From Candidatus Dojkabacteria bacterium (lineage in GTDB: Bacteria; Patescibacteriota; Dojkabacteria; SC72; JAFGCJ01): DNA of 33,362 nt. Location of the stretch: positions 1 to 33,362 of the forward strand of contig JAQVGB010000001.1 in the NCBI GenBank assembly GCA_028696915.1, in the 5' to 3' direction. This document shows positions 9,288 to 33,362 of this stretch, piece after piece. How positions within the stretch are numbered: the first letter of the stretch is position 1; each line of letters starts with the position of its first letter. The notes under the pieces were generated by a model that saw nothing but the letters and a program-made list of their open reading frames with translations, made no database searches and was not told the origin of the DNA. Both the position numbers and the translations under genes were made by a program.

Positions 9288-9377
9288 GAACGGGATACCC
9301 ATATATTCCGGAGGTACCGGTCAATACAGGAAGAATCTGTAACTCTGACCGGCCACCGGTTCTACCGACAACAATTA

Positions 9378-9391
9378 CTATACGTTAGCGG
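9378..9391 (+). promoter_or_regulatory. Second copy of the CTATACGTTAGCGG box, 7 nt upstream of the ABC gene ATG
   Basis: The sequence ttaCTATACGTTAGCGGggttaggATG is a 14/14 match to 539..552. Confidence 0.45.
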
Positions 9392-9398
9392 GGTTAGG

Positions 9399-11985: not shown

Positions 11986-12059
11986 CGCATCTAGGAGGAC
12001 TCGAACCTCCAACCTTTGGTTCCGAAGACCAACGCTCTATCCAATTGAGCTATAGATGC
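11986..12059 (-). tRNA. tRNA-Arg (anticodon UCG)
   Basis: Hand-folded cloverleaf on the minus strand: GCATCTA TA GCTC AATTGGATA GAGC G TTGGT CT-TCG-GA ACCAA AGGTT GGAGG TTCGAGT CCTCC TAGATGC, discriminator G. No CCA is encoded. Confidence 0.9.
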
Positions 12060-12072
12060 GGAGGTGGCGGGA

Positions 12073-12095
12073 TTATCCAATTAAGCTACGGGTGC
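12073..12095 (-). pseudogene. tRNA-Arg-like 5' fragment (acceptor 5' strand plus D-arm start)
   Basis: Minus strand GCACCCGTAGCTTAATTGGATAA: its first 15 nt (GCACCCGTAGCTTAA) are identical to the 5' end of tRNA-Arg(GCG) and similarity then weakens. Its acceptor strand is complementary to CGGGTGC in element R1. Confidence 0.55.
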
Positions 12096-12181
12096 ACACC
12101 ATGCTTGCTCAGACCATATGCGCTATAGAACGAACACCTCCTATCACTGCACTCTCTGCTCAGCAGACTGCAGATACTACA

Positions 12182-12625
12182 TCACGTGTATGTAACAGTC
12201 TGTATTGGCGCAACAACCGTGCCCTCCAAAAAGTTCTTCGTCACCAGTTTCATATCCTCGTGAACGATCTCGTCATTTGATATATTCCAGAATCGTTCAA
12301 GATCAAAATATCGCGCGTCCAGAACATTATCATCGCTAATCGTGACACCCTCGGATTCAGCCTTACATCCGAATACCAGATACAACGTCTTATCAACCGG
12401 AGTGACCGAAAGATACCCGGCAACCAGCCCTTCGACGCTCACCTTCACCCCACACTCTTCCATCACCTCCCGCTGAACCGCGTCACTAAGCGTCCGGTCC
12501 GAAGATTCCTCAAAGGTACCGCTTACTAAGTTCCACTTCTCAAGCTGAGCCGATTTGAGGCTTCTTTCACGAACAAGAAGGATCTTATTGCTCTTAATTA
12601 CGATGGCCCCGAACGTGATGGTCAT
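12182..12625 (-). CDS. NUDIX hydrolase
   Basis: Nudix box REVMEECGV is preceded by SGTFEESSDRTLSDAVQ, which has slightly longer G-to-RE spacing than the consensus. I take ATG 12625 (MTITFGAIVIKS...) as the start. The ORF track begins at a TTG at 12637, only 11 nt from the tRNA. Confidence 0.75.
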   Translation of the reverse strand: MTITFGAIVIKSNKILLVRERSLKSAQLEKWNLVSGTFEESSDRTLSDAVQREVMEECGVKVSVEGLVAGYLSVTPVDKTLYLVFGCKAESEGVTISDDNVLDARYFDLERFWNISNDEIVHEDMKLVTKNFLEGTVVAPIQTVTYT

Positions 12626-12647
12626 GCTATTTCGCAATTAATTCAAA

Positions 12648-12720
12648 CGCACCCGGCAGGATTCGAACCTGCAACCTTTGGTTCCGCAAACCAATGCTCT
12701 ATCCGTTAAGCTACGGGTGC
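12648..12720 (-). tRNA. tRNA-Arg (anticodon GCG)
   Basis: GCACCCG TA GCTT AACGGATA GAGC A TTGGT TT-GCG-GA ACCAA AGGTT GCAGG TTCGAAT CCTGC CGGGTGC, discriminator G. A promoter-like tttttgtaCTATAAGTGAGCGGcgt directly abuts the 5' end. Confidence 0.9.
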
Positions 12721-12777
12721 ACGCCGCTCACTTATAGTACAAAAACGTTCCGATGACAAGCTTCTCGTGCTATAGGT

Positions 12778-12842
12778 TGGCGCGATCGCACCTGGCAGGA
12801 CTCGCCTGTCCGCCTCCGGCGGGAACCTGCAATCCGATTTCC
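12778..12842 (-). pseudogene. tRNA-Arg(UCU)-derived T-arm and acceptor 3' fragment with a 19-nt hairpin insertion in the T-loop (element R2)
   Basis: Minus strand: TGCAGGTT + CCCGCCGGAGGCGGACAGG + CGAGTCCTGCCAGGTGC + GATCGCGCCA. The 17-nt 3' piece is identical to the 3' end of the adjacent tRNA-Arg(UCU). The insertion is at the same T-loop position as in R1 and is near-identical to it. Confidence 0.6.
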
Positions 12843-12854
12843 ACACCACTTCTT

Positions 12855-12927
12855 CGCACCTGGCAGGACTCGAACCTGCAACCTACTGCTTAGAAGGCAG
12901 TTGCTCTATCCGTTGAGCTACAGGTGC
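12855..12927 (-). tRNA. tRNA-Arg (anticodon UCU)
   Basis: GCACCTG TA GCTC AACGGATA GAGC A ACTGC CT-TCT-AA GCAGT AGGTT GCAGG TTCGAGT CCTGC CAGGTGC, discriminator G. Confidence 0.9.
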
Positions 12928-12997: not shown

Positions 12998-13858
12998 TTA
13001 GTCTTCAATCCACCATTCATTCCCGTCCGAAACGATCTCGATCGTCCCCCACTCGTCAGTTCGAAGATACTCAAGACCCAGAGCATCAAATCGTTCCAGA
13101 ATCTCCTTATGGGGATGTCCGAAAGAGTTGTCCGCCCCAACACTGCAAATCGCCAGTTCAGGAGAAGCCATCCTTAGAAAAGATTCCCCGCTTGATGTAT
13201 GGGAACAATGGTGGCCCGCCTTCAGCACATCGACAGCACGCACATTGCTCCTCCATTCACTTTTCAACAGTGACTCCTCGCCTGATTGGGTGAGATCTCC
13301 GGTCAACAGCGCGTGAAACGTCCCATATTCTACACTTACCACAAGCGAACATCCGTTCACATCCGAACGATCTCTGCTTTCACCAAAGTCACCATAGATA
13401 CTTACACTCAACACACACAAATCACCACCAGAAACCATACTTACACCAACCTCTTGGCTTACATACACCAATTTCACATTTTCGAAATTGACCTTTTCAA
13501 GTAATTCCTGAGATACGGAATCGTACTCACACACCTCCGGAACAAGAAACATCCCGACTTCATAGCGGTCCACTATTTCAAACAACCCCTCATAGTGATC
13601 AGCATGCGGATGAGTCAAAACAACAACATCTAGTTCATGAACCCACGGTGGCAGAGTCGAGCCAAGTTCAGACAGCACCGCATCTCCCGGACCGCCATCG
13701 ACAAGAATCGTCAACCCCGAAGGTGTCCTGATAAAAATTCCATCACCCTGCCCCACATCGAAAATCCATATATGTAACTGTGTATCAGCACGCCACCCAA
13801 ACCAAAGACCGGATAGACACAGGATCGTTGCAATTGTGAACATCAACACTGGCTTCAT
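12998..13858 (-). CDS. ComEC-type metallo-beta-lactamase-fold domain protein with its own N-terminal membrane anchor
   Basis: Contains HxHxDH (VVLTHPHADHYEGL) and the ComEC-MBL-like KAGHHCSHTSS motif. The N-terminus is hydrophobic (MKPVLMFTIATILCLSGLWFGW). Its start overlaps the comEC stop by 4 nt (ATGA). Confidence 0.8.
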   Translation of the reverse strand: MKPVLMFTIATILCLSGLWFGWRADTQLHIWIFDVGQGDGIFIRTPSGLTILVDGGPGDAVLSELGSTLPPWVHELDVVVLTHPHADHYEGLFEIVDRYEVGMFLVPEVCEYDSVSQELLEKVNFENVKLVYVSQEVGVSMVSGGDLCVLSVSIYGDFGESRDRSDVNGCSLVVSVEYGTFHALLTGDLTQSGEESLLKSEWRSNVRAVDVLKAGHHCSHTSSGESFLRMASPELAICSVGADNSFGHPHKEILERFDALGLEYLRTDEWGTIEIVSDGNEWWIED

Positions 13859-15399
13859 GTGCGAACTTGACCTGAAATTACCAGGCCATCCGACCGCACA
13901 TCCCTATCATTACCCGGATAAAACGCAACAATGGTCAAACCCAGCGCTACGTACAGTACCGCACATATCCAGGCCGATTCTACTGAAAATTCAACGATTG
14001 CCCACGATGGCTGGGCCAAACACTCCACAACCCAGACAAAATACCGCAGTATCACCCACGCGGGCAGAGCCACAACAATAGCAAGACTACGTGATATACA
14101 CGACACGGCGATGAGAAACACCCCCAGTCCCATAACCGGAGCAATGGTCGGAGCAACCAGTATATTCGCAATCAGCGCCACCACCGACACCGACCCAAAG
14201 TGATACGAGACGACAGGAAAAGAAGCCACTATCGCCGACAATGTCACCGACACCGATTCCGAAAAACCTTTGAGAAACCCTGCAAAGAACCGATCAATGA
14301 CCGGTGAAACATATATGAGGCCAAACGTCGACGAAAAGGAAAGCTGGAAGCTCAAATCGTAGAGGACACGAGGATCTGCCAGCACGAGCAATGCGGCGCT
14401 CAGCGGTAAAGCAACGTGCACGACAGAGGTATTACCCGAAAGCGTACCAAGCGTTGCCATCGTCACCATCAATCCTGCTCGTATAACCGGAATACTCGCG
14501 CCGGAAATCAGAACAAATGACCAGACCGCAACAAGTCCCATCAGCAAACGCTTCTTGCGCGACAGAACGGACAACATCCGATCCACCGACGTAGCAACGA
14601 TCGCCACATTGTATCCCGAAGCCGCAATAATATGTGTTGTCCCTGTTATCCGCAGGCTTTCCGAAAACCACACCGGCATGCTCCCTTCGACACCCAACAG
14701 CATACCGCCCAGAAGCGCCGCATGCGGCTCGGGAAGGTACAACTGAAGCCGCTTGAGCAAATTCCCACGAATTCGGACATGTACATTCGCCATACCTTCG
14801 GCCTTTTCAATAACGGTGAGCACCCGAGCACGGTACATAACCGAATAGATATCCTTTCTGTGCAGAAATTGCTCATATGAAAAATCAGAGTCCGGAGAAT
14901 CTCTCGGCCGCTCCAGCAGACCAGTCACGACAATTCGGTCTGCGTCTCCCACGGCAGGATACCGGGGAAGAAACACCTGCACCTTCCCGGTGACCACGTG
15001 CCACTCTTCACACTCGTCCTTCTCGATATCCGTGCACACGCGGTCGGCAGACAGAACACAGGAAATCCGGTCCGGTTTTTTCCCGCACTCTCCCGAAACA
15101 ACCCCCTCCACCATTGTAAAAGAGGTCGCATTATATGAGATATCACGATCGGGGATGGTCAGACTCACAGACCCCACCCTGATACTCACTAATGCTATCC
15201 CAAAAACAAACGGGATACATTTCACAACGCTTCTTTTTGCAATTCCCACCAAAATCACAACGATTGCACACCCCACAACTACACCAAAAGGGAAAAGGGA
15301 ACCGAAAAAGACACCAATACACCACTGCAACAATGGAACCAACACGACAAAACGACCTATAGCAACGAGTCGACAACTCAACACTTGCACTATAGGCAT
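13855..15399 (-). CDS. comEC: ComEC/Rec2 DNA-uptake channel (OB/DUF4131-like plus competence domain), lacking the MBL domain
   Basis: Polytopic membrane protein. It carries the competence-domain motif THIIAASGYNVAIV, which I recall as H-L/I-x-A-I/V-SG-x-H/N. It is preceded by comEA and followed by the MBL gene. Confidence 0.8.
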   Translation of the reverse strand: MPIVQVLSCRLVAIGRFVVLVPLLQWCIGVFFGSLFPFGVVVGCAIVVILVGIAKRSVVKCIPFVFGIALVSIRVGSVSLTIPDRDISYNATSFTMVEGVVSGECGKKPDRISCVLSADRVCTDIEKDECEEWHVVTGKVQVFLPRYPAVGDADRIVVTGLLERPRDSPDSDFSYEQFLHRKDIYSVMYRARVLTVIEKAEGMANVHVRIRGNLLKRLQLYLPEPHAALLGGMLLGVEGSMPVWFSESLRITGTTHIIAASGYNVAIVATSVDRMLSVLSRKKRLLMGLVAVWSFVLISGASIPVIRAGLMVTMATLGTLSGNTSVVHVALPLSAALLVLADPRVLYDLSFQLSFSSTFGLIYVSPVIDRFFAGFLKGFSESVSVTLSAIVASFPVVSYHFGSVSVVALIANILVAPTIAPVMGLGVFLIAVSCISRSLAIVVALPAWVILRYFVWVVECLAQPSWAIVEFSVESAWICAVLYVALGLTIVAFYPGNDRDVRSDGLVISGQVRT

Positions 15400-16097
15400 A
15401 TCGAATCCTTAAACTTGTCAAGTGTCTTGTCGCCTATTCCCGAAACAGAAAGTAGGTCCGACACCGCACGATAAGGCCTTCCGCTAATAATCTTTTCGGC
15501 CGTGGACGGACCAACACCCGGCAATGTTTCGAGTTCGGACGGAGATGCGGTGTTTATACTCACGCAGGAAGCTGATACCTCTGTCACTCCCGATCCCGCC
15601 GCCACCACGCTTTCCGGGACTGCACCACCGACAACCGCGCCACACTCCACCGCCGAAACAGAAGGAACAAACACCTTTGAATTCGGGATGACATGCTGAG
15701 CTAGGTTTAAATTTCTCGAGATCCACGGCAGGCATGCGTCTCCCGAAAACCCTCCCGCCGCTCCAACTACATCGTCGATAATCGAATCATCAGACAGACA
15801 CAGGACACCCGGCTGAGCAACCGCACCAGACACTTCAATCCAGACACCATTGGTACACCCTTCGTCCACAGCACTACCAGAAAGCCCCCCAGGGTTATCA
15901 CCCTCATCGATTCCTTCAGAAATGAACGTATCGCCAGCCGGAGGCACGATGTCTCCGGAAGAGGCCGTCAGATGCGTCACACCCCACACTCCTCCCGCCC
16001 CAAGCAAAACCCCCGCGATACATCCCGCGGTGGCAGCCTGCACAATTGTTATCCGGGAAAGTAGCGCTTTCAAACGCTCACGATCGAAATTCACCAT
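15390..16097 (-). CDS. comEA: ComEA-like DNA receptor (membrane anchor, SLBB-like region, tandem helix-hairpin-helix)
   Basis: The C-terminus reads INTASPSELETLPGVGPSTAEKIISGRPYRAVSDLLSVSGIGDKTLDKF, which is two HhH GxG motifs. There is an N-terminal TM segment, and the gene overlaps the comEC start by 10 nt. Confidence 0.8.
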   Translation of the reverse strand: MVNFDRERLKALLSRITIVQAATAGCIAGVLLGAGGVWGVTHLTASSGDIVPPAGDTFISEGIDEGDNPGGLSGSAVDEGCTNGVWIEVSGAVAQPGVLCLSDDSIIDDVVGAAGGFSGDACLPWISRNLNLAQHVIPNSKVFVPSVSAVECGAVVGGAVPESVVAAGSGVTEVSASCVSINTASPSELETLPGVGPSTAEKIISGRPYRAVSDLLSVSGIGDKTLDKFKDSICL

Positions 16098-21992: not shown

Positions 21993-24900
21993 CTACTCAG
22001 GTGTCCAAACTCCCGATCCGTTGATAACACGCACAAAGTACGCTTCAGTTCCGGAAATCGGAAAGTCAAAGCCGTACACCTCCTGTGTCCCGCCGTCGCC
22101 GGTCTCCACCTGCAAACCGCTGTACCGCGAACGAACCGCTTCCCACTCTGACAAATTATCCGCCTGTACTACTCCTGTCAGATTCACCCCATCTATCACC
22201 GATGCCGCAGTATACGACTCGCCAACGCCATGAACCGACACGAGATTCCAGCCCTCAATAAGTCCAATCGGGACTGGTTCGGCCACCCCCTTCCCTTCCA
22301 GGCGTACCAATATATCTGCACTTGAACGAATGACATACCCCTTTCCGGGTAGTATCTGAAAGTCGTTTGAACCGTAGATCGTTTCCCCCCGTTGTTCAAT
22401 CACCTGCCACTGCCCACTTTCATACGAGGCGATAGAGTAAAAGGAACCGCCGTATACTTCATTGAGATTAACCAGAACTTCAACAGCCGTAGTTCCAATA
22501 TCTTCGTTCAAAAAAGGAAACGACACAAAGTTGAAACCTTGTGATATATCATAGTAAAAGCTCAAGTTCTCTTGGGTTACCGTAATCCCCGTCGCTCTCG
22601 AGATATCAATATCTCTTTCATCGAATAATCCATTTTCGTTTACGTCCACATATATCACCGCCTGCCCCCCGGCATTGACATAGAAACATAGTGTCCCATA
22701 TCCCTCAATTCCATCGACGCAGTACTTACCCGGTTCTGGGAATAGCATTATTCCAGTTTCAGGGTCAATGATGACGTCCTGACTATCACTCTGAGCGTGC
22801 ACCCTGAAGTAATTGCTCAGAAGCGATGCTCTTTTCTCAACGCCAATCACCGCCTCCCGCAAACTTGCAATAACTCCACTCCCATCGATAACTATTTGTG
22901 AATTCTCACCTGACGGTGGATCGCACTTACAGTCACCCAGATCACTGCACTGACAGACATATCCTTTTGTATTACAAATCTGCCCGGGTTCGATACGCTG
23001 TTTTACCCAACAGCCGGGTGTAGTAATATTCGGGCACCAATCGTTTAGTTCGATACTGTAAAATGCCGCGTGTTCGCAATTACACTGTTTAGCCTTGCAC
23101 TGTTCTCCTTTTGATACATCTGCCCAAGCGGGGATCTCCGGCGGGGTACCTCCCCCACACGCTTCACCCGGAGCAATAACCGAATTTGTTTCGTCACAGT
23201 AGCAACCAACATTGGTTCCTGTCAGACTCACATCAACAGGACATGATCCCTCTGAAATTTTCTCCTGCCATACGCCTCCAGTACAGACATACTTTCTCGA
23301 TCCTGATTCGCGGACTTGTCCACTGCATTTATCGCCGCACGCCTTCCCCTCCCCACTGAAATCACATCCAGAACCGCCCCCTGAAGGAGGTGTAGCAGGA
23401 GAAGAACCACCGGTGGCGTCGGTCGAATTGCTTGTACTTGAGGAACTTCCTGATTGTTTGCATTCATAGCAAAGCTGATAGCTCACTACCACCGGCGCAC
23501 ATCGGGGACACAAAGCGCCCCCATCCGGTGTTTCCGTTCCCTCGAGCCCTCCACACGTATCATCCGGATAATACGAGCCTACACACACTTCAGACGGAGG
23601 TGGTGGAATTTGACCCGGAATATCATCCGCATCGATAAACGGACAGGTTTCCGTGCACTCTACGAAATCATATAACCGTTCATCAATATTGCAGTAACAC
23701 CCATCACCATCAAGACACTTTTGATTCCGGGATTTTGAACCCTCATTACCATCTACAGGACATTCAGAACCACCCCCGGACGGAATGGCATCACCACTCC
23801 CCGACCCATCTCCACACCCTCCACAGCAATCGCTCGATGCCTTCCACGTACCATCGGCCTGACAGGTCGCCCACGAACACTTCGGATCCCTACTACCGCC
23901 TTCGCCGCTGGTCCAACAGTCGTATTTATCTGGTCCACAGCGAACTTCTCCGCACCCACCCCCACCCGACGATGGTTCCTGTTCCTCACCTCCGGTATAA
24001 CAACAGCGGATATTCGCACTGCCCGGACATAAACCGATCTTTATCGTTCCCGCGCCATTATTACAAGAATCTCCGCTACTCTTTCCCGGAGCGGAAATAC
24101 ACTCTCCCGGAACTCCATAACAGGAACAACCGGCAAAATCGGCATCAGTGCAACCGGACTGGTTTGGATCCTCACAACAGCTCGTTGATCCCTCCGAATG
24201 GGGAGAGTCCGAGCTTGAATCTGTATCTGTCTCCGTATCGGAAGAGGACGAGTCGTCATCCGAATCATCCCCAGAAGCGTCGTTCTCGTCAATACAACAC
24301 TTAATGTTTATCGGCTGAGTGGGACACAATCCTGATCGTACCTTTCCTGAACAATCATTCTCATTCATACATTGGCCCCCCACTGCCTCACACTCCGGCT
24401 CCTGATATGCCGCTTCCACATATGACACCAGGCTCCCACCGCCCTTTGATTCCACGACGTCCTGCTCCTCCTCCATCACAATCGGATCGGCTGGGGCATC
24501 CATCGTCATAGGAATCGTCACCTCTTGTGGAACAAATCCCGGTGCTTCAACAAGAAGATATTCTTCATCTGTGTTTTCATCCACTCCCCCAAACTCGGCT
24601 CCATCAAACGCACGAAACCCTGAAATATCAATATACCAGCTTCCGTTATCCGCAAGCACTGCAGACAAGGGCTCGCTTGGCAGTTCATTAATACGCATAT
24701 AAATCACACCATCTGGAATATCACCGGCCGGTGACACAATCTTTCCATATGCGGGATTGGGAACCCGCATATCTTCGAGATCGGCAAATGTCGTGAACGA
24801 ATTTACTGATGCCGTTGGAAATCCGCCGGACGTGTCCATCTCCCATGATTTTGAGAACCTGAATCCATTCCCGACCATGAAATAGTATGTCTGCTCAGGA

Positions 24901-25442
24901 TCTAGCCCCGACACAGTCACGTGATGTGCAAAATACTCGCCGACTGTTTTCACAACCACATCCTCGGCAACCGTCAGATAATCGATCTTTGCTCCTCCAT
25001 TGCCTTCCTGTAGAGAATCCCGCATGTTTTGCGCCGCATCCAGTCGGGCGCGGATGACATCACGGTCATCCACTGCAATTTCTTTCCCAATTTTTGAGAA
25101 AAAAAGCGGGTAAAACTGGTCGGTCGTTCCATAGACCACATAGCCTTTCGTCGCCTCATCAGTCACCCAGCTAATCGTTGCGGAACGTCCGGTCACATTA
25201 GTCACACGCACCCTTTTCGGGGCAGAGAAATTCTCGGACAATCCTACATAGACAACAAATGCGATCGTGAGGACAAATACCACCAAACTCAGCCCCACAA
25301 CGAACCTGTTCGGAGAAATCTTCATCCTCAGCCGCTTCAACGCGGGCTTCTGCAACACTGTAACCGGTTCGGGAGCAGGTGGCACAGTATCGGGAGTACC
25401 GGGCACATTCGCAGCCGGAACATCAGGGACAGTCTGATCCAT
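21993..25442 (-). CDS. Membrane-anchored Fn3-headed, cysteine-rich modular surface protein, paralog 1 (1149 aa from ATG 25442)
   Basis: Pro-rich N-terminal tail, KRLRMK, then a TM segment (FVVGLSLVVFVLTIAFVVYVGL). Fn3/purple-acid-phosphatase-N-like domain (VRVTNVTGRSATISWVTDEATKGYVVYG...HHVTVSGLDPEQTYYFMVGNG). 54 Cys lie between aa 351 and 840 (counted from the track translation). The C-terminal domain is shared with paralog 2 and ends GSGVWTPE. The start is set at MDQ (25442) because a TTGACA-17-TATGCT promoter and an AGGA box lie inside the longer track ORF, whose extra 60 aa look non-protein-like. Confidence 0.8.
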   Translation of the reverse strand: MDQTVPDVPAANVPGTPDTVPPAPEPVTVLQKPALKRLRMKISPNRFVVGLSLVVFVLTIAFVVYVGLSENFSAPKRVRVTNVTGRSATISWVTDEATKGYVVYGTTDQFYPLFFSKIGKEIAVDDRDVIRARLDAAQNMRDSLQEGNGGAKIDYLTVAEDVVVKTVGEYFAHHVTVSGLDPEQTYYFMVGNGFRFSKSWEMDTSGGFPTASVNSFTTFADLEDMRVPNPAYGKIVSPAGDIPDGVIYMRINELPSEPLSAVLADNGSWYIDISGFRAFDGAEFGGVDENTDEEYLLVEAPGFVPQEVTIPMTMDAPADPIVMEEEQDVVESKGGGSLVSYVEAAYQEPECEAVGGQCMNENDCSGKVRSGLCPTQPINIKCCIDENDASGDDSDDDSSSSDTETDTDSSSDSPHSEGSTSCCEDPNQSGCTDADFAGCSCYGVPGECISAPGKSSGDSCNNGAGTIKIGLCPGSANIRCCYTGGEEQEPSSGGGGCGEVRCGPDKYDCWTSGEGGSRDPKCSWATCQADGTWKASSDCCGGCGDGSGSGDAIPSGGGSECPVDGNEGSKSRNQKCLDGDGCYCNIDERLYDFVECTETCPFIDADDIPGQIPPPPSEVCVGSYYPDDTCGGLEGTETPDGGALCPRCAPVVVSYQLCYECKQSGSSSSTSNSTDATGGSSPATPPSGGGSGCDFSGEGKACGDKCSGQVRESGSRKYVCTGGVWQEKISEGSCPVDVSLTGTNVGCYCDETNSVIAPGEACGGGTPPEIPAWADVSKGEQCKAKQCNCEHAAFYSIELNDWCPNITTPGCWVKQRIEPGQICNTKGYVCQCSDLGDCKCDPPSGENSQIVIDGSGVIASLREAVIGVEKRASLLSNYFRVHAQSDSQDVIIDPETGIMLFPEPGKYCVDGIEGYGTLCFYVNAGGQAVIYVDVNENGLFDERDIDISRATGITVTQENLSFYYDISQGFNFVSFPFLNEDIGTTAVEVLVNLNEVYGGSFYSIASYESGQWQVIEQRGETIYGSNDFQILPGKGYVIRSSADILVRLEGKGVAEPVPIGLIEGWNLVSVHGVGESYTAASVIDGVNLTGVVQADNLSEWEAVRSRYSGLQVETGDGGTQEVYGFDFPISGTEAYFVRVINGSGVWTPE

Positions 25443-25470
25443 ATGATTCCTGGAACATATAATCAATTCC

Positions 25471-25499
25471 AGCATACGCAAACACGAAATCCTTGTCAA
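25471..25499 (-). promoter_or_regulatory. Putative promoter TTGACA-17-TATGCT of paralog 1
   Basis: Minus strand: TTGACA (25499..25494), spacer aggatttcgtgtttgcg, TATGCT (25476..25471). AGGAAtcATG follows. Confidence 0.55.
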
Positions 25500-25769
25500 A
25501 CTGCTGGTGGACTGGAAATCGCACGTTTTGTTCGAAAATTCCCGATCTACACTCCTAACCTCAAAAAAACGTCCTGTCATACACCACAGAAACGGGGACA
25601 CGATGACGTCCCCTCGGCGCATCTATGTCCCCGGATTCCCCCTCGATTCCAACAATACAGAATCCGGATGAAAAGATCCTAACAAAAGTATGACAGGATA
25701 ATTACCCGAGAGAGTCGGGACAGGCCAGCACATACCGGCCAAAAACGTTTTCACCACGACACGTTTCGT

Positions 25770-28691
25770 CTACTCGGGCGTCCACACCCCGCCGCCCGCC
25801 GAAATTCTGACGAAGTACCCGCGCCCAGTTTCCAACGGAAAATCGAAACCGTACACTTGAGCGCCGGTTTTCTGCAGGCCCTCGTACCGGGACACAGGCG
25901 CATCCCACTTAGTCACGTTATCAGCGGTCGCTCCTTCAATCGCGTTGATGCTATCGATCAGGCTTTCGGCGGTGTAGATCCTTCCCGCGCCGTTAATACC
26001 CATCAGATGCCATCCGGGAACGTTGAAGTCCACGGGAGCCGGAGCCGTCAGTGAATACCCGGCAAGAAGCAATTCCATGTCAACAAACGATCTCAGCACA
26101 TATCCACGGCCGGGAACAACAGGGAAGCAGTCCCCGGAAACGGTCCCTGTATCGCGACGGTACGAAGTCGCCTGAAACTTCCCGGACTCAAATCGCCCGA
26201 CCATAGTCACCCCCAGATCCGTTGTCACAGCGTTCATATCAACAATAAGCTCACACGAATCCGTCAGGGCTGGAAGGTACTCGAACGAGACGAAATTTAA
26301 CCCTTCGGAAACGGTCAACTCAAACGTGCTTTCCGTCGTATCGACCGTTACCTCTAACAGAGTACTACAAAGATCAAGTTGTTTTTCGTCACCATCCATC
26401 ATACCATTCCCGTTATCATCAACAAAAAGCGTGTATCCCTGTCCCTCGACAAGACGGACACTCTCGACGACCCCGACACCGGGGACCGTCACACTGTATA
26501 GACCGTTTTCATCTGGCGTCATAACAAGACAGTCCGTTACGGTATACGAGGCTTCTGCGGCATGAACGGAGGGAACAAGCCGCGAGGAAGATGTTCCAAG
26601 TGCGGATTTGGAAGAAGTTCGTTGGGCGACGGCTCCGAATCGGCGGTTTTCTTCACCGGCATGCCCTCCCGGGCGAATCGGTATTGAACCTCCCCGGCTA
26701 CTACTTCCACCTGTATCACGATCCGTGCCGCCGTTCGCAGACGCCGGTTGACATGCCCCCTCACCACAGGATTCATAACCACTATTTGGGAATTCAAACG
26801 CCGCACAATCTTTGTATTCAGAAAGCGTCTCGTCGACTGATTCACCATGCTCATACCAACAACAGCATCTCTTCGTATTTCCTTGTCCTGCATTCGCAGA
26901 GTTCTCCTGAGAAGCAACCACACAACAACCAAAACCCTCCTGACATCCATGACCTTTCTTAAAGTCTCCTCCCTCACATGCCTTAGCGATATTACAAGTC
27001 CCATTTTTTCCATTGATAGCACAGCTATCACCAATATTCTTTTCAATCTTCTCGGCACAACATACAACTTCGGCGCCACCCGGACAGTGCCCCGGAACGA
27101 AGTCCTTCGGCGATTCACACGATTCTCCTGCACTTTTATCCAGACACTCTCCGGTATGATAGTTCGATGGCGTACAGTCTTCCCCTACACCTACTTTCGT
27201 GTCTTCCGTCTGGTCACTCGGCCTCCCAGATTGGTCAGAATCCTGGCCGGGACCTTCCGCATTGCTAGAAACACATTTATTCTTGTCATTGCAAATCAAC
27301 CCCTCACAACACCCACCCTCCTTATTACACGCCTCACCCACGTCACTACACAGCTCATTTCCCTCTGCACACTTACCACAGCCATGCGCCTGACAGTCGT
27401 TATATCCCTTCTTCCAATCATCCTCAGAATCACACTGACCACCACCAAGAGCCTCATTTCTCCATCCACTATCATCACAGCAGTTGTTTGCTGCCACGAC
27501 ATACGACACCAGCCCTCTCCCGCTACTTTCTTCTGTTTCTGGGCTATCGGCATCCAAGCCGTCCGCTGAGGACACCGTGATCACCCGCGCCGGAGCATTT
27601 TCATTAAGATGAATATTGACTGGAGTAGAGGCAAGATCCGATCCGGCAACGACATACACATTTTCAAGATCACTCTCCTCATCAAATGCTACCACCTCGC
27701 CGCTCACCGACCGCACATTCGCCAGATCAAGATACCACCGTCCCTCTTCGTTCAATGTCGCCGAAACCGGAGCCGACTGCGTTTCCGCACCATTGTAGTA
27801 CACAACCGCATACGAAATCCCGTCCACAGCCGCCGACCCGTCCTCTGAAACGACACTCCCGTACGATGGATCCGGAACAGCAAGGTCCTCAACCATGGCA
27901 ACTGTCACAAACACATTCTCCTGCGACACCGTGTAGCGATCATTAGCAAACGTGTCCAATTCCGCACTAAACCATAACCCCGATCCTACCGCGAAGTAGT
28001 ATTGTTGCTCTGGATCCAGCCCGGTCAGCGTCACATGATGTGTATAGTAATTATTCAAATCGGGAGCCATCGCATCATACCCGGCAGGCACCATAGAGAC
28101 ACCCTCTGTGCCACTGATATCTGCATAGTACTCAAGCTCCGCCTTGCTGACGTCCCTGTCATCATAGGCAAGTTTACTTCCAAATCTCGCAAGCACACCC
28201 GGAAGAAAACTCTGATCTTGAGAATACACGACCACACCCGGGGTCGGTTTGTCGGTCCGCCACGAAATAGTCACGGATTGATCAGTCACATTCGTTACGC
28301 GGATATCTCGAGGAGCGCTATAGGTGACTACCGTCCACACGGCAAAACCAGCAATTGATAGGAAAACGGCCCCAGCCAACAAAAGCAGGAGGGCCTTCAG
28401 AATCGAGCGGTTCCCTTTCGGTTGCTCTGATTGGGAATGCACGGATTGTGGTGGCTCAACTGGAGCGGGTTGTGTTGGTGCAAGATTAGCCTGCGGCAGT
28501 TCAACGTGCGGCACCGCAGCCTGCACACCAGCAGGTTGCGGAACATCAGGTTGACCTAACGACTGGGCCTGTTCTTCTTTTTCAGCACCCGACACCTGGT
28601 CGACTAGAGCCTTTGAATCCTGGACCGGAGGAGAACCAGGAGCATTTGACGAAGAAACCTGACCGGAAGAATTGCTCTCTTCTGGATTCAT
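25770..28691 (-). CDS. Membrane-anchored Fn3-headed, cysteine-rich modular surface protein, paralog 2 (973 aa)
   Basis: A ~95-aa Q/P/S-rich tail precedes the TM segment (ILKALLLLLAGAVFLSIAGFAVWTVV). Fn3-like domain (IRVTNVTDQSVTISWRTDKPTPGVVVYS...HHVTLTGLDPEQQYYFAVGSG). 30 Cys lie between aa 404 and 647. The C-terminal domain is colinear with paralog 1 (PGWHLMGINGAGRIYTAESLID...QVYGFDFPLETGRGYFVRISAGGGVWTPE). Confidence 0.85.
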   Translation of the reverse strand: MNPEESNSSGQVSSSNAPGSPPVQDSKALVDQVSGAEKEEQAQSLGQPDVPQPAGVQAAVPHVELPQANLAPTQPAPVEPPQSVHSQSEQPKGNRSILKALLLLLAGAVFLSIAGFAVWTVVTYSAPRDIRVTNVTDQSVTISWRTDKPTPGVVVYSQDQSFLPGVLARFGSKLAYDDRDVSKAELEYYADISGTEGVSMVPAGYDAMAPDLNNYYTHHVTLTGLDPEQQYYFAVGSGLWFSAELDTFANDRYTVSQENVFVTVAMVEDLAVPDPSYGSVVSEDGSAAVDGISYAVVYYNGAETQSAPVSATLNEEGRWYLDLANVRSVSGEVVAFDEESDLENVYVVAGSDLASTPVNIHLNENAPARVITVSSADGLDADSPETEESSGRGLVSYVVAANNCCDDSGWRNEALGGGQCDSEDDWKKGYNDCQAHGCGKCAEGNELCSDVGEACNKEGGCCEGLICNDKNKCVSSNAEGPGQDSDQSGRPSDQTEDTKVGVGEDCTPSNYHTGECLDKSAGESCESPKDFVPGHCPGGAEVVCCAEKIEKNIGDSCAINGKNGTCNIAKACEGGDFKKGHGCQEGFGCCVVASQENSANAGQGNTKRCCCWYEHGESVDETLSEYKDCAAFEFPNSGYESCGEGACQPASANGGTDRDTGGSSSRGGSIPIRPGGHAGEENRRFGAVAQRTSSKSALGTSSSRLVPSVHAAEASYTVTDCLVMTPDENGLYSVTVPGVGVVESVRLVEGQGYTLFVDDNGNGMMDGDEKQLDLCSTLLEVTVDTTESTFELTVSEGLNFVSFEYLPALTDSCELIVDMNAVTTDLGVTMVGRFESGKFQATSYRRDTGTVSGDCFPVVPGRGYVLRSFVDMELLLAGYSLTAPAPVDFNVPGWHLMGINGAGRIYTAESLIDSINAIEGATADNVTKWDAPVSRYEGLQKTGAQVYGFDFPLETGRGYFVRISAGGGVWTPE

Positions 28692-31082: not shown

Positions 31083-32339
31083 TTACCCGATGCTCTCGTG
31101 CAGAGTCGCAAGGAATTCCTGGTTGCTCTTGGTCTTTCTGAGCCGCTCAACCAGGACTTCGGTTGCACCTTCTTCCTGGGGGAGCGCTTCAAGCATACGC
31201 CTGACACGCCAGGACTGATTAAGCACTTCCTTATCGAGCAGAAGCTCTTCATGGCGGGTTCCCGAACGGACGACATCAATGGCAGGATACACTCGCCGCT
31301 CGGCAAGGCGCCGGTCGAGGTGCAGTTCCATGTTGCCGGTGCCCTTGAACTCCTCGTATACAAGATCGTCCATGCGGCTACCGGTATCGATCAGTGCAGT
31401 TGCAATAATCGTAAGGCTTCCACCGTTTTCGATGTTTCGTGCCGCACCGAAGAACCGCTTTGGCGGGAACAATGCAACCGGGTCGAAACCGCCCGACAAG
31501 GTCCGTCCTGATGTCGGCATCGTAATATTGTATGCGCGTGCAAGACGGGTAATGCTGTCCATCAGAATGACAACGTTCCGCCCTGCCTCTACCATTCTTT
31601 TGGCCTTCTCAAGTGCCATTTCCGCGACTTTGCAGTTATCCTCAGGCCGTTCGTCGAAGTTGCTTGCAAACACCTCACCCTTCACCGACCGCTCGATATG
31701 GGTCACCTCCTCCGGCCGTTCTCCGACCAATACGACCATCAGGTCGACATCTTTCTGATTCTCGGTAACACCGGCAGCGATATCGAGTAGAAGCCACGTT
31801 TTACCCGCTTTCGGCGGGGACACGATCATACCGCGCTGTCCGAAGCCGATCGGACTGAGCAGGTCGATAATACGGGTCGACAGCTTGTCTGATTCGGTTT
31901 CCAGAATAATTTGCTTATCGGGAAAAATTGGGGTCGATTTCTCAAATCGGGGACGGTCCATAATTGAAAGCGGATCCATACCCCAAACCGAGTCCACCCG
32001 CAATAGCGAGCGGTATTTCTCGTTATCTTTGGGAGGCCGGGCCGGGCCTGCAATGAGATCTCCGGTCTTGAGCCGGAATTTCTTAATCTGAGTACCGGAG
32101 ACATAGGCGTCGTGCTCTCCCTGAAGTAATCCTTCTGTCCGAAGTACCCCATGGGTGCTGTCGTTCATGACCTCGAGAACGCCTGACGCGTAATCGTAAC
32201 CCTCTTTCTTGGCGACATGGCGCATGATGTTCATGATCACCTCACTCTTGTCATCCGCACCGCCATCGGTAACGTCGAGTTTTTTTGCAAGAAGTTTCAA
32301 CTGCGGAACCGTCTTTGCGTTAAGCTCACTGAAATTCAC
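31083..32339 (-). CDS. rho: Transcription termination factor Rho (GTG start)
   Basis: Rho_N-like N-terminus (NFSELNAKTVPQLKLLAKKLDV), an RNA-binding OB region, Walker A SPPKAGKT, and a RecA-type ATPase core running to the ...RLRKTKSNQEFL tail. Confidence 0.93.
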   Translation of the reverse strand: MNFSELNAKTVPQLKLLAKKLDVTDGGADDKSEVIMNIMRHVAKKEGYDYASGVLEVMNDSTHGVLRTEGLLQGEHDAYVSGTQIKKFRLKTGDLIAGPARPPKDNEKYRSLLRVDSVWGMDPLSIMDRPRFEKSTPIFPDKQIILETESDKLSTRIIDLLSPIGFGQRGMIVSPPKAGKTWLLLDIAAGVTENQKDVDLMVVLVGERPEEVTHIERSVKGEVFASNFDERPEDNCKVAEMALEKAKRMVEAGRNVVILMDSITRLARAYNITMPTSGRTLSGGFDPVALFPPKRFFGAARNIENGGSLTIIATALIDTGSRMDDLVYEEFKGTGNMELHLDRRLAERRVYPAIDVVRSGTRHEELLLDKEVLNQSWRVRRMLEALPQEEGATEVLVERLRKTKSNQEFLATLHESIG

Positions 32340-32459
32340 CTTGATACGACACTGAAATCTTAGATGCCTGCGAGGAAATGCCTCAGCGGGTTGATACCTG
32401 AAAACTCCCGGAAAGCCACATCGCCAGAGTTACACGTCTTGAGATGGAAAACTGCGTTA

Positions 32460-32488
32460 AGTATACGAAGCTGTAGTATCGATGTCAA
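32460..32488 (-). promoter_or_regulatory. Putative rho promoter TTGACA-17-TATACT
   Basis: Minus strand: TTGACA (32488..32483), spacer tcgatactacagcttcg, TATACT (32465..32460). The resulting 5' UTR is ~113 nt. Confidence 0.6.
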
Positions 32489-32508
32489 ATAAGCGTAGTT
32501 GCTTTGCG

Positions 32509-32550
32509 AAAAAAGGAAAAACGGGATCGGTACTGCCCCAACCGACCCCG
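32509..32550 (-). terminator. Strong intrinsic terminator ending the radA-rho intergenic transcript
   Basis: Minus strand: CGGGGTCGGT, loop tggggcagt, ACCGATCCCG, then TTTTTCCTTTTTT. The stem is 10 bp with one G.U. Confidence 0.75.
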
Positions 32551-32628
32551 ACCACTAAATCCTCTATGGACCTACCGGTCGAGGTATAACACAACAGTTA
32601 TTTCCCGAAAAGAAGAGCGATGCGCGAA

Positions 32629-32746
32629 CTTTTCCGAGGGACCAGTCGCAGGTATTCCCTACGCCAGACCCTGGGAAAAATCCGCGCGGGTAGACTTTTC
32701 CGAGGGACCAGTCATAGCTGTTCACTATACCAGACCCTGGGAAAAA
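32629..32746 (-). repeat. Two direct repeats (period 66 nt) with conserved arms and a variable 16-nt centre
   Basis: Plus-strand units 32629..32680 and 32695..32746 share cttttccgagggaccagtc and ccagaccctgggaaaaa exactly. The centres are gcaggtattccctacg and atagctgttcactata. Confidence 0.95.
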
Positions 32747-32783
32747 CCTGCCCGCCGACACTTAGTTATTGAAGAACATGTAC

Positions 32784-32812
32784 ATTATATCCTATAGCCT
32801 TACCGGTGTCAA
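32784..32812 (-). promoter_or_regulatory. Consensus promoter TTGACA-17-TATAAT for the intergenic RNA
   Basis: Minus strand: TTGACA (32812..32807), spacer ccggtaaggctatagga, TATAAT (32789..32784). A second candidate, TTGACA-18-TACTAT, lies at 32862..32833. Confidence 0.7.
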
Positions 32813-32987
32813 CCCTCTAATTACTTATCCACATAGTATCGTCCCGGATACAGTTTTGTCAAGACCCGATTAAAGTATGTTGCGCCGCGACTTTCCACCA
32901 CAAAACAATCACTATCTGTCGGAACACCCCGTAAGAATGTTACGAAAGTTTCGCGGAAAAGATACGTGATACGATAATTGGAAAAAT

Positions 32988-33362
32988 CTACTGACGGAGG
33001 GATTTAACGATGTCGTGCACATCCGTGTGCGCACCACGGCGCTCACCGGTTATCGACAACCCCCGCCGCTTCGCCTCGCCCGATACCCGCTTCATATAGG
33101 CAACCGGCCGGACCTCGCCGGAAAGACCAACCTCACCAACATACACATCCGTTCTGCGTAGAGGAACATCCAGTTTCGAGGAAACAATCGCCATACATAC
33201 CGCAAGGTCCGCCGCAGGATCGTCAATCGTCATCCCACCGATAACGCTGACATAGACATCATCGGACGAAACATCGACCTTAGCCCGCCTCGAAAGCACC
33301 GCGCACAACATCTCAAGCCGCTGTCGTGCAATCCCCGTCGGCAGTCTCCGGGGAGAACCGAA
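32988..33362 (-). CDS. radA: DNA repair protein RadA/Sms, C-terminal Lon-protease-like domain; 5' part lies beyond the window end
   Basis: The frame is open from 33362: FGSPRRLPTGIARQRLEMLCAVLSRRAKVDVSSDDVYVSVIGGMTIDDPAADLAVCMAIVSSKLDVPLRRTDVYVGEVGLSGEVRPV...EAKRRGL. This is the typical RadA C-terminal pattern. Confidence 0.85.
   Translation of the reverse strand, partial: FGSPRRLPTGIARQRLEMLCAVLSRRAKVDVSSDDVYVSVIGGMTIDDPAADLAVCMAIVSSKLDVPLRRTDVYVGEVGLSGEVRPVAYMKRVSGEAKRRGLSITGERRGAHTDVHDIVKSLRQ

Follow-up and report, generated by a model that had tools for sequence, protein, structure and literature searches.

The spacer between radA and rho on the minus strand of a contig from a Candidatus Dojkabacteria bacterium (JAQVGB010000001.1, assembly GCA_028696915.1) was analyzed; the whole stretch of 33,362 nucleotides is referred to as the window. 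With a probability of about 60%, this spacer contains the gene for a previously uncatalogued, independently transcribed and structured small RNA, about 270 nt long here and 140–330 nt in homologs. The comparative data established a non-coding element that occurs throughout the lineage under structural constraint and runs from a promoter of its own to a hairpin and U-tract. Its sequence signals suggest release as a discrete, end-protected RNA of about 270 nt, which would act through protein recognition of its invariant parts. The radA–rho intergenic RNA would thus be a new structured small RNA family among the orphan bacterial non-coding RNAs, with a function proposed from sequence and context. 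An earlier reading of the letters alone (the sequence-only reading) had described a promoter-to-terminator unit encoding a tandem-hairpin RNA. That interpretation was supported, and the present analysis added a boxA-like 5' end, a 3' domain with a long-range helix, an invariant 3' hairpin, and copies in phages.

Conservation and transcription signals of the unit

Homologous loci were gathered by Rho similarity, which places the window in Dojkabacteria (WS6, Patescibacteria), with the best locus at 81% Rho identity, about 50 further species-level genomes at 65–76%, and Chloroflexi at 56–62%. Moreover, at least 120 loci were obtained when metagenomes were searched with a degenerate 3'-hairpin pattern. 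The element was found upstream of rho in all 53 Dojkabacteria-type genomes having upstream sequence, and both the element and its 27-nt 3' hairpin were absent from 25 Chloroflexi loci. One element site was present per locus in about 1.7 Mb searched, and the element is not a dispersed repeat. On comparing the window with the homologous locus L001, conservation followed the RNA rather than the spacer: identity was 62% in the promoter region (flanks 37–38%), 82% and 68% in the two hairpins H1a and H1b, and 100% in the 3' hairpin, while the surrounding spacer showed 15–41%.

The spacer comprises 650 nt between the radA stop at 32988 and the GTG start of rho at 32339. Rho was identified by matches to the NCBIfam Rho equivalogs (E = 3.7e-176 and 7.6e-172), and the truncated upstream open reading frame (ORF) of the window aligned with the full-length RadA of L001 (TIGR00416, E = 2e-136). 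The order on the minus strand is a sigma-70 promoter (P1), two 66-nt direct repeats (32759–32628), further hairpins, a GC-rich stem followed by GUUUUUCCUUUUUU, and the rho promoter (P2), with coordinates collected in Table 1.

The sequence-only reading had recognized a perfect TTGACA-17-TATAAT at P1 and a separate rho promoter next to the unit, and both were recovered in the homologs. A P1-type promoter was detected in 141 distinct homologs and none at 11 loci; a conserved (T)ATRGG precedes both of its hexamers. A P2-type sequence, TTGAC[AT]-N16-18-TATACT, occurred no more than 80 nt from the hairpin in 113/146 distinct flanks compared with 1.7% of random windows. A second TTGACA-18-TACTAT upstream, which had also been listed, is present in the window (10/12) but is not conserved. 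Because only 8/132 homologs showed such a site, against 3.9% of background windows, it is probably incidental.

At the other end of the unit, a scan for intrinsic terminators, in which a GC-rich stem is followed by a U-tract, matched at 32543..32525 with a stem of 9–10 bp, and at least five U were counted among the first 8 nt after the hairpin in 130 of the 146 distinct flanks. The 10-bp hairpin and U-tract reported earlier were confirmed, but their treatment as a mere terminator was not, as this is the most conserved part of the RNA. The 3' hairpin is more than a terminator, given its 7–9-nt loop, its invariance, and the copies that lack a U-tract. A P1 unit that ends in a hairpin and U-tract and is followed by P2 has the signature of two back-to-back transcription units, and this was the main reason for ranking a free RNA above a leader. 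These sequence signals point to a discrete transcript with a start near 32777–32779.

Covariation of the H1 hairpins

The two 66-nt units (32628–32759) are 79% identical, and their 17-nt and 19-nt arms occur in exactly two copies each, with chance expectations of 0.13 and 0.01, respectively. In each unit, 15 of the 17 arm positions pair, including the tandem U.G/G.U, and the mismatches form 1x1 C.C and U.U loops, so that folding bore out the pairing claimed earlier. The 276-nt transcript folded at -120.6 kcal/mol (z = -7.07), and 0/200 shuffles were as good. Although the unit centres differ, both fold: columns 28–44 changed from A-U to G-C and columns 32–40 from U.G to G-C, and two more pairs were altered on one side only. 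The compensatory nature of these centre stems was thereby upheld, but not their GAAYA pentaloops, which are confined to the close relatives of the window.

From base to middle, H1a consists of a UUUUUCC/GGAAAAG stem, a 1x1 C.C, AGGG/CCCU, a 1x1 U.U, and a CUGG/CUGG box with tandem U.G/G.U. Its tip is an apical stem with a GAACA loop, and an outer stem prolongs the hairpin to about 32755–32686. H1b has the same arms, a compensated centre, and the loop GAAUA. A covariance model built from 15 hand-picked H1 units gave 71 matches in genome loci (674 kb), at least 113 in metagenome loci (825 kb), and 22 in the other sequences searched. Every match lay at the radA–rho RNA site on the rho strand, save two weak reverse-strand echoes, and there were zero matches in the Chloroflexi rho loci.

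Across 65 distinct H1 sequences, 89% of the alignment cells were paired (89–92% across alignments) and double changes were found in 18/24 pairs. When the partners were slid by 1–3 columns as a control, 37–55% were paired. The invariant core comprises CC/GG at the base of the conserved part and the 5'-CUGG/5'-CUGG box, in which the U.G, the G.U, and the G-C were each retained in 65/65 sequences. As these U.G and G.U pairs are always kept, the transcribed strand is fixed, and the minus strand proposed by the sequence-only reading was the right one. Between the CC/GG base and the CUGG box, four pairs swap wholesale (AGGG/CCCU versus UUUG/CAAA). The apical part is variable in sequence and length, with insertions of up to about 50 nt in the alignment.

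The tandem repeat described earlier holds for the window but is not a feature of the family, as homologs have one, two, or three H1 units. In the window, L001, L002, and L186, both units belong to one subtype and are closer to each other than to the orthologous units, which suggests gene conversion. Furthermore, the whole unit (H1 and 3' hairpin) is tandemly doubled in L047 (3559–3856) and in L120 (two matches), and three successive H1 hairpins occur in L131 (1490–1676). The copy number of the module is evolutionarily fluid.

The 3' domain and its invariant hairpin

The 27-nt 3' hairpin is the most conserved part of the RNA, in stem and loop alike, across species whose Rho proteins are only about 67% identical. 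Its consensus, GGGGTCGGT-Y-GGGGCAG-T-R-CCGATCCC, was matched with 0–3 substitutions in 52 Dojkabacteria-type loci, with two copies in L047. The rare variants are compensatory, with C-G changed to U-A in L047, and G.U to A-U and G-C to A-U in L052.

The remaining parts of the 3' domain also covaried. The columns of hairpin M1 were 92.7% paired with double changes in 4/5 pairs (50 homologs), and the conserved GGGA columns read G/G/G/A in 35–42 of 43 sequences. In the case of hairpin M2, double changes were observed in all 7 pairs, and the CUYCGA/YCGGGG columns of the helix around it were 84.7% pairable. The H1 pairings claimed by the sequence-only reading are kept, with compensatory changes, in the radA–rho spacers of relatives.

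The U/C-rich tail is complementary to a purine tract about 55–70 nt upstream; in the window, the partners are CGGGA:UCCCG and/or GGAAAAGU:GUUUUUCC. The duplex between tail and purine tract scored at least 24 in 39/137 sequences compared with 3–7 when the tails were reversed or shuffled. Odd bases of the tail were matched by the partner, as in L150 (UAGAGAGAGGGGA/UCCCUUUUCUCUA) and L168 (AGUAUGGAAAGGGA/UCCCUUUUUAUACU), and the columns of this closing helix were 83% paired on an alignment that was not fitted to the structure. This places the 3' end of the RNA in a closing helix around a three-hairpin junction.

The 3' strand of the CCUCGACC/GGUCGGGG helix overlaps the first four G of the 3' hairpin, which creates an alternative junction isomer. 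In the first isomer, GGGA:UCCC and CUYC:GGGG form a four-way junction free of linkers with a 5-bp stem under the invariant loop; this is the minimum free energy (MFE) structure in L030, L022, L007, and L168. In the second, GGGG:UCCC completes a 9-bp terminator stem. Both isomers are compatible with the alignment, and covariation cannot separate them because the deciding columns never vary.

Table 1. Features of the radA–rho intergenic RNA and its promoters in the window.
Feature	Position	Strand	Evidence or remark
P1 promoter, TTGACA-17-TATAAT, GGG before it	32784..32812	-	score 12/12
BoxA-like transcript 5' end GUUCUUCAAUAA	32766..32777	-	one mismatch to GYTCTTTAANA
Hairpin H1a	32690..32751	-	covariance-model match 76.4 bits, E = 3e-23; MFE and RNAalifold concordant
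Hairpin H1b, second motif copy	32624..32685	-	covariance-model match 70.8 bits, E = 3e-21
Pyrimidine linker CGCUCUUCUUUUC, conserved GGGA, hairpin M1 (AUAAC-UGUUGU-GUUAU)	32579..32619	-	alignment
Helix CCUCGACC/GGUCGGGG around hairpin M2 (32554–32576)	32546..32584	-	present in MFE
10-bp GC-rich stem CGGGGUCGGU/ACCGAUCCCG and GUUUUUCCUUUUUU	32550..32509	-	hairpin and U-tract
Invariant 27-nt 3' hairpin GGGGUCGGU-U-GGGGCAG-U-ACCGAUCCC	32523..32549	-	9-bp stem including G.U, 7–9-nt loop
U-rich tail GUUUUUCCUUUUUU	32509..32522	-	terminator U-tract and 3' strand of the long-range closing helix
P2 rho promoter, TTGACA-17-TATACT	32460..32488	-	score 11/12; unit boundary, outside the RNA

BoxA-like 5' end

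The published boxA consensus is GYTCTTTAANA (PMC5725501). The window reads GTTCTTCAATA at this position, and the first 12 nt of the predicted transcript are G(U/A/C)UCUUUANAA in many homologs. With at most one mismatch, boxA was found in 39/141 homologs versus 20/5220 background windows (0.4%), an enrichment of about 70-fold, and the matches always lay 0–4 nt from the predicted start. The same motif occurs in the rRNA spacers of the same lineage, for example as GUUCUUUAAACAA and GCUCUUUAGAA, in operons that lie about 8 kb upstream at several loci. By analogy with the known role of boxA, NusB/NusE may bind the 5' end of the RNA.

As an observation on the surrounding genes, L114, L115, L137, L150, L081, L175, and others have a 16S-tRNA-tRNA-23S-5S operon that shares the orientation of clpC-radA, a few kb upstream of these genes and about 8 kb upstream of the RNA. 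The 23S genes in loci with such nearby rRNA operons span 3.1–4.7 kb against the 2.9-kb model, implying large insertions or introns. Such insertions or introns have been reported for the rRNAs of the Candidate Phyla Radiation (CPR).

Synteny and copies in phages

Among the matches listed, rho was found no more than 1.1 kb downstream in 86 of the 97 metagenome loci having at least 1.1 kb of downstream sequence, with a median gap of 132 nt, and radA was upstream in 126 of the 142 loci with room. Complete copies of the RNA also occurred without rho but with radA kept (L084/L145, L128, and L155) and without either gene (L087/L178, L098, and L113). The synteny clpC-radA-RNA-rho is strongly conserved but not obligatory, and the copies lacking rho or both neighbours fit a free-standing gene. 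In the lineage with no rho downstream (oriented coordinates L084 2818–3195, L128 5353–5766, L155 2287–2589), the RNA is followed by a small conserved ORF, M(A/P)R(K/Q)QIKL...LPISTF.R, which looks ribbon-helix-helix-like by eye and had zero Pfam matches.

Related elements were found in phages and in other contexts. In the IMG/VR phage L202, replication-type genes are preceded by a promoter, a boxA-like sequence, a true H1 (39.4 bits), and the 3' hairpin, which lacks a U-tract here; the set is divergent from a small ORF. Phage L201 has a replication-protein-O-like gene and a YqaJ gene, and a module of CUUCGA, M2, and the 3' hairpin lies between the two, enclosed by a closing stem. Phage L203 carries a perfect boxA (GCTCTTTAAAA), a hairpin, and the 19-nt core UCGGUUGGGGCAGUACCGA, with boxA about 60 nt before the core; the core sits in a different 10-bp closing stem and is followed by a second boxA-like motif, an HNH gene, and a tRNA-Thr gene. 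The metagenomic locus L122 has a compact H1 and 3' hairpin 350 nt before a small terminase gene, and in L193 the 27-mer stands in the 3' untranslated region (UTR) of a PNKP-phosphatase gene and is followed by an ordinary terminator. L201, L203, and L193 keep the 3' core alone, in new closing stems. The stem-loop is therefore a portable functional module that serves some purpose other than termination as such.

A blastn search of the GenBank phage collection gave zero matches to the RNA. When viral sequences were scanned with the lineage-specific H1 string GTCTGGTTCGCGTACA, 81 matches were obtained, essentially all in one unrelated repeated coding sequence. The 19-nt core TCGGTTGGGGCAGTACCGA at 8374–8392 of L204 was rejected because it falls by chance within the ORF of a phage lysozyme and encodes (T)IGWGST there; it calls for caution in pattern-based searches for the radA–rho RNA. 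A tRNA-Thr(UGU) gene is located about 550 nt downstream of the element both in the host locus L087, which lacks rho (8726–8801), and in phage L203 (7586–7656); this may be a coincidence, or a hint of a host–phage relationship or an integration site.

Comparison with known RNA classes

A cmscan of the window with Rfam 15 at the gathering threshold found only five tRNAs, elsewhere in the window, in line with the earlier reading, which had not recognized the RNA as 6S, tmRNA, SRP, RNase P, or Csr/Rsm. Ten homologous loci gave only rRNA, 5S, and tRNA. With E<=10, the window and two distant homologs gave only sub-threshold hairpin noise: the best scores were 17 bits against a gathering score of 70 for mir-35, 27 against 100 for rli48, and 23.5 against 102 for MIR5185, and the families differed between homologs. 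ARAGORN detected no tRNA or tmRNA at 32300–33000 or at the element in 8 homologous or phage loci. A search of the available literature for the sequence and for Dojkabacteria RNA motifs found no match.

Individual classes were rejected as follows. A 5S rRNA or a detached rRNA piece was discarded because the same loci have complete 16S-23S-5S operons, each including its 5S gene, about 8 kb upstream, with large subunit rRNA models matching positions 1–2925. SRP RNA, marked by a universal helix-8 motif, 6S RNA, and RNase P RNA, marked by a P4/CR-I-V core, had zero Rfam matches even at E<=10, and the consensus fold is one of serial hairpins and a closed 3' junction. A Csr/Rsm-type sponge would expose several GGA motifs in its hairpin loops, but the GGA conserved in H1 takes part in the pairing at the foot of the stem, and the apical loops are variable and have no conserved GGA. 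An antitoxin RNA of a type III toxin–antitoxin system was considered since it also has tandem direct repeats followed by a terminator upstream of a protein gene. However, the downstream gene here is rho and not a ToxN/AbiE-type endoribonuclease, the repeat number is 1–3 with single-unit homologs common, and the units are long hairpins of about 60 nt rather than the 34–36-nt processed repeats of ToxI.

Close likenesses are seen to rrn leader and spacer sites and lambda nut (boxA and boxB hairpin), which share with the RNA here a boxA of the GYTCTTTAANA class at the start of an untranslated structured transcript, a very strong promoter, a sequence-conserved stem-loop, and related elements in phage early regions. 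The loops GAACA and GAAUA of the window resemble GNRA-like boxB pentaloops but are not conserved across the H1 family. Unlike rrn and nut, the host unit stops about 250 nt later at a hairpin and U-tract, beyond which a separate promoter serves the next gene. Its conserved stem-loop, with a 5- or 9-bp stem and the loop GGGGCAG, is also unlike a boxB-type hairpin; no N-like protein is known, and an N-like gene was not identified. The put RNAs of HK022 and EAR of Bacillus are likewise compact multi-hairpin RNAs just downstream of promoters, with phage and host versions, and their conserved internal loops act on RNA polymerase. However, there was no match in sequence or structure (Rfam holds EAR and gave zero matches), and put and EAR lie in long operon transcripts without a following terminator and new promoter.

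Among trans-acting RNAs, 6S RNA and the lambda pR'-tR' transcript are similar as non-coding promoter-to-terminator RNAs tied to the transcription machinery, abundance being a feature of those known RNAs. The pR'-tR' transcript lies directly upstream of genes reached only by antitermination. In 6S RNA, the 5' and 3' ends pair to give a single rod with a bubble at its centre, whereas the RNA here is a string of hairpins with a closed 3' junction. Y RNAs (YrlA) are also modular, with a multi-helix cloverleaf-like domain, a position beside a protein gene, and phage-encoded relatives; in contrast, no rsr (Ro) gene is nearby here, T-loop/D-loop mimicry was not detected by ARAGORN or Rfam, and the junction has no linker nucleotides. 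Like the orphan RNAs (raiA, OLE, ROOL, HEARO, and similar), the radA–rho RNA was found by intergenic conservation and covariation, is lineage-wide, and has a function unknown at discovery. Its sequence and fold match none of their Rfam models, and it has so far been found in Dojkabacteria, neighbouring CPR lineages, and their phages only.

Motifs around the two promoters

A DnaA-box-like motif, TGTGGATAA (plus strand TTATCCACA), flanks P1 at 32825–32833 on the minus strand of the window. With at most one mismatch, it was found no more than 35 nt upstream of the -35 hexamer (about -45 relative to P1) in 51/132 homologs and in the first 45 nt of the transcript (about +20) in 78/132, against 1.2% of background windows. 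DnaA or another factor could regulate P1 through it, or it could be an RNA-level (boxC-like) motif. A replication origin, considered because of these motifs, was rejected since GC skew keeps its sign on both sides in 56/58 loci and the genes are co-oriented.

Furthermore, CGTAAC(A) heptamers are repeated between the radA stop and P1 (about 32938–32990, minus strand). At least two copies were present in the 300 nt upstream of P1 in 47/132 homologs compared with 1.8% of the background (e.g., L006 3440–3500). They may be bound by a transcription factor or belong to the radA 3' UTR. In the rho 5' UTR of homologs, UAAUUUCCC lies 12–18 nt before the ATG in 59/81 distinct sequences versus 16% of other genes (examples are L006 3960–4000 and L007 830–865). 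It is often preceded by a small GGG...GCCC hairpin and is not obvious in the rho leader of the window. Shine–Dalgarno-like motifs are generally rare in the homologous genomes, and the complementarity of UAAUUUCCC to the GGGAAA(U) segment of the RNA extends over 6–7 bp only.

Proposed function and competing explanations

The following mechanism is proposed. The RNA would be made from its own strong promoter P1 and released at the 3' hairpin and U-tract just before P2. As on rRNA, the boxA-like 5' end would bring NusB/NusE to the polymerase during transcription. Next would come one to three H1 hairpins, each with the invariant CC/GG base and the tandem-wobble CUGG/CUGG core, and the U-rich tail would pair back to the purine tract to close the junction of M1, M2, and the invariant 3' stem-loop. 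The molecule would then act as RNA, in trans, as a stable scaffold or decoy, with a conserved protein recognizing the 3' stem-loop (loop GGGGCAG) and the H1 core. A protein of the transcription elongation/termination machinery is the most plausible partner, because the boxA motif and the gene position next to rho both point in this direction. Phages of these bacteria would carry their own copies to use the same partner.

Several points weigh against a free RNA of this kind. The 3' domain has mutually exclusive pairings (GGGA:UCCC with CUYC:GGGG versus GGGG:UCCC), as in attenuators. The U-tract is broken by a C (UUCUUCUUU) in most homologs, and a minority of them and the phage copies have no U-tract; therefore, termination may be partial, and the hairpin is conserved in a role other than termination. 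Element and downstream gene always share one orientation, and the transcript ends are placed by consensus signals only. Moreover, the partner protein and the target are hypothetical, and the window contains zero copies of ACUGCCCC, the complement to the invariant loop, besides the opposite strand of the hairpin itself.

The strongest competitor, which is possible though clearly less probable than the free RNA, is a cis-acting leader: a nut/put-like antitermination site, or a protein- or ligand-controlled attenuator, that sets read-through from P1 into rho or into phage early and late genes. Polymerase that begins at P1 would acquire Nus factors, or an N-like factor, through the boxA and the conserved stem-loop. 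This explanation would account for the boxA-like 5' end, for the position of the L202 element before replication genes without a U-tract, which is that of nutR in lambda, for the spacing of boxA and core in L203, and for the compact copy before the terminase gene in L122. In line with it, the two junction pairings could cut the terminator stem from 9 bp to 5 bp, and the element typically lies 110–160 nt upstream of rho, with which it is always co-oriented. In the phage copies L202 and L203, which have no U-tract, the element does lie within an operon transcript as nut sites and rrn leaders do. In the hosts, however, the U-rich tract after the 9-bp GC-rich stem and the near-consensus promoter before rho set it apart (the 130 and 113 of the 146 flanks above), and a gene regulated by read-through normally has no promoter of its own there. 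P2 in between also argues against direct control by a riboswitch or attenuator, for which both isomers are compatible with the alignment and no aptamer-like match was obtained. In addition, the downstream gene varies by lineage (rho, the small ribbon-helix-helix-like ORF, and others), the tail has been selected to pair back into the RNA, which suits a released, end-protected molecule, and rrn-type Nus complexes of E. coli do not override intrinsic terminators.

A bolder interpretation, held more tentatively still, is that boxA, H1, and the invariant stem-loop constitute a nut-like host module that programs the Nus/RNA-polymerase complex or antagonizes Rho. From its site next to rho, such a module would set rho expression or global termination, and phages of CPR bacteria would have taken it over for antitermination in their early and late operons.

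Apart from these RNA-level readings, it is improbable that the 27-mer works in DNA, as an operator palindrome of the rho promoter, a recombination or attachment site of phages, or part of a replication-control locus. The stem and loop are both invariant beyond the needs of pairing, 27-mer copies occur in phage contigs, and the TGTGGATAA-like motifs flank P1 at the frequencies given above, all of which would suit such a role. Nevertheless, the G.U of the stem would be A.C on the other strand, the variants in L047 and L052 are compensatory at the RNA level, and the phage copies keep the RNA architecture (closing stem, CUUCGA, and M2) rather than a bare identical core. There is also one copy per locus, no integrase lies beside the element in the fragments seen, and the GC skew described above excludes an origin.

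It is very unlikely that the spacer is just the usual terminator of radA and promoter of rho, accompanied by hairpins that arose by chance or by a local tandem duplication. Intergenic hairpins and terminators are indeed common, and H1a and H1b resemble the products of a recent duplication, or of gene conversion, among the close relatives of the window, but this explanation is contradicted by the comparative data: over 140 distinct sequences share the conservation and covariation, the RNA has a consensus promoter to itself, its fold reaches z = -7, and the motif is absent elsewhere in the roughly 1.7 Mb searched. Finally, a small repeat protein from the 65-aa frame at 32564..32761 (two FFPGSG...DWSLGKV repeats, a GTG start, and a 66-nt period of 22 codons) has a negligible chance, being refuted by in-frame stop codons in L001, L186, L180, L009, and L006, in addition to which the frame has no Shine–Dalgarno sequence, the substitutions are pairwise-compensatory rather than synonymous, and the 27-mer is outside it.

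Other genes in the window

Elsewhere in the window, ComEC is split into a Competence-domain ORF and a metallo-beta-lactamase ORF beside a ComEA-like HHH protein (12998–16097, minus strand). A cluster of three tRNA genes is located at 11986–12927, and two large paralogous proteins (973 and 1209 aa) with a purple-acid-phosphatase N-domain in common are encoded at 21993–28691. A 2892-aa ORF on the opposite strand, in the region 609–11855, converges near 12 kb.

Implications

To our knowledge, CPR bacteria, with their tiny genomes, have almost no characterized regulatory RNAs. The RNA described here has a 27-nt segment as invariant as rRNA across species with Rho about 67% identical. Together with its own consensus promoter and its occurrence in all Dojkabacteria-type genomes that were examined, this invariance suggests that the RNA is important and possibly has a housekeeping role. 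The rRNA-type boxA, the site beside the gene of a termination factor, and the nut-like positions in phages provide a testable link to the control of elongation and termination. If the nut-like module were true, a new class of RNA would govern transcription termination in a lineage of phylum rank on which hardly any experimental biology exists, and such a termination-controlling RNA, common to host and phages, would be considerably more important. Moreover, CPR genomes and their phages can be annotated with the new covariance model that the family provides.

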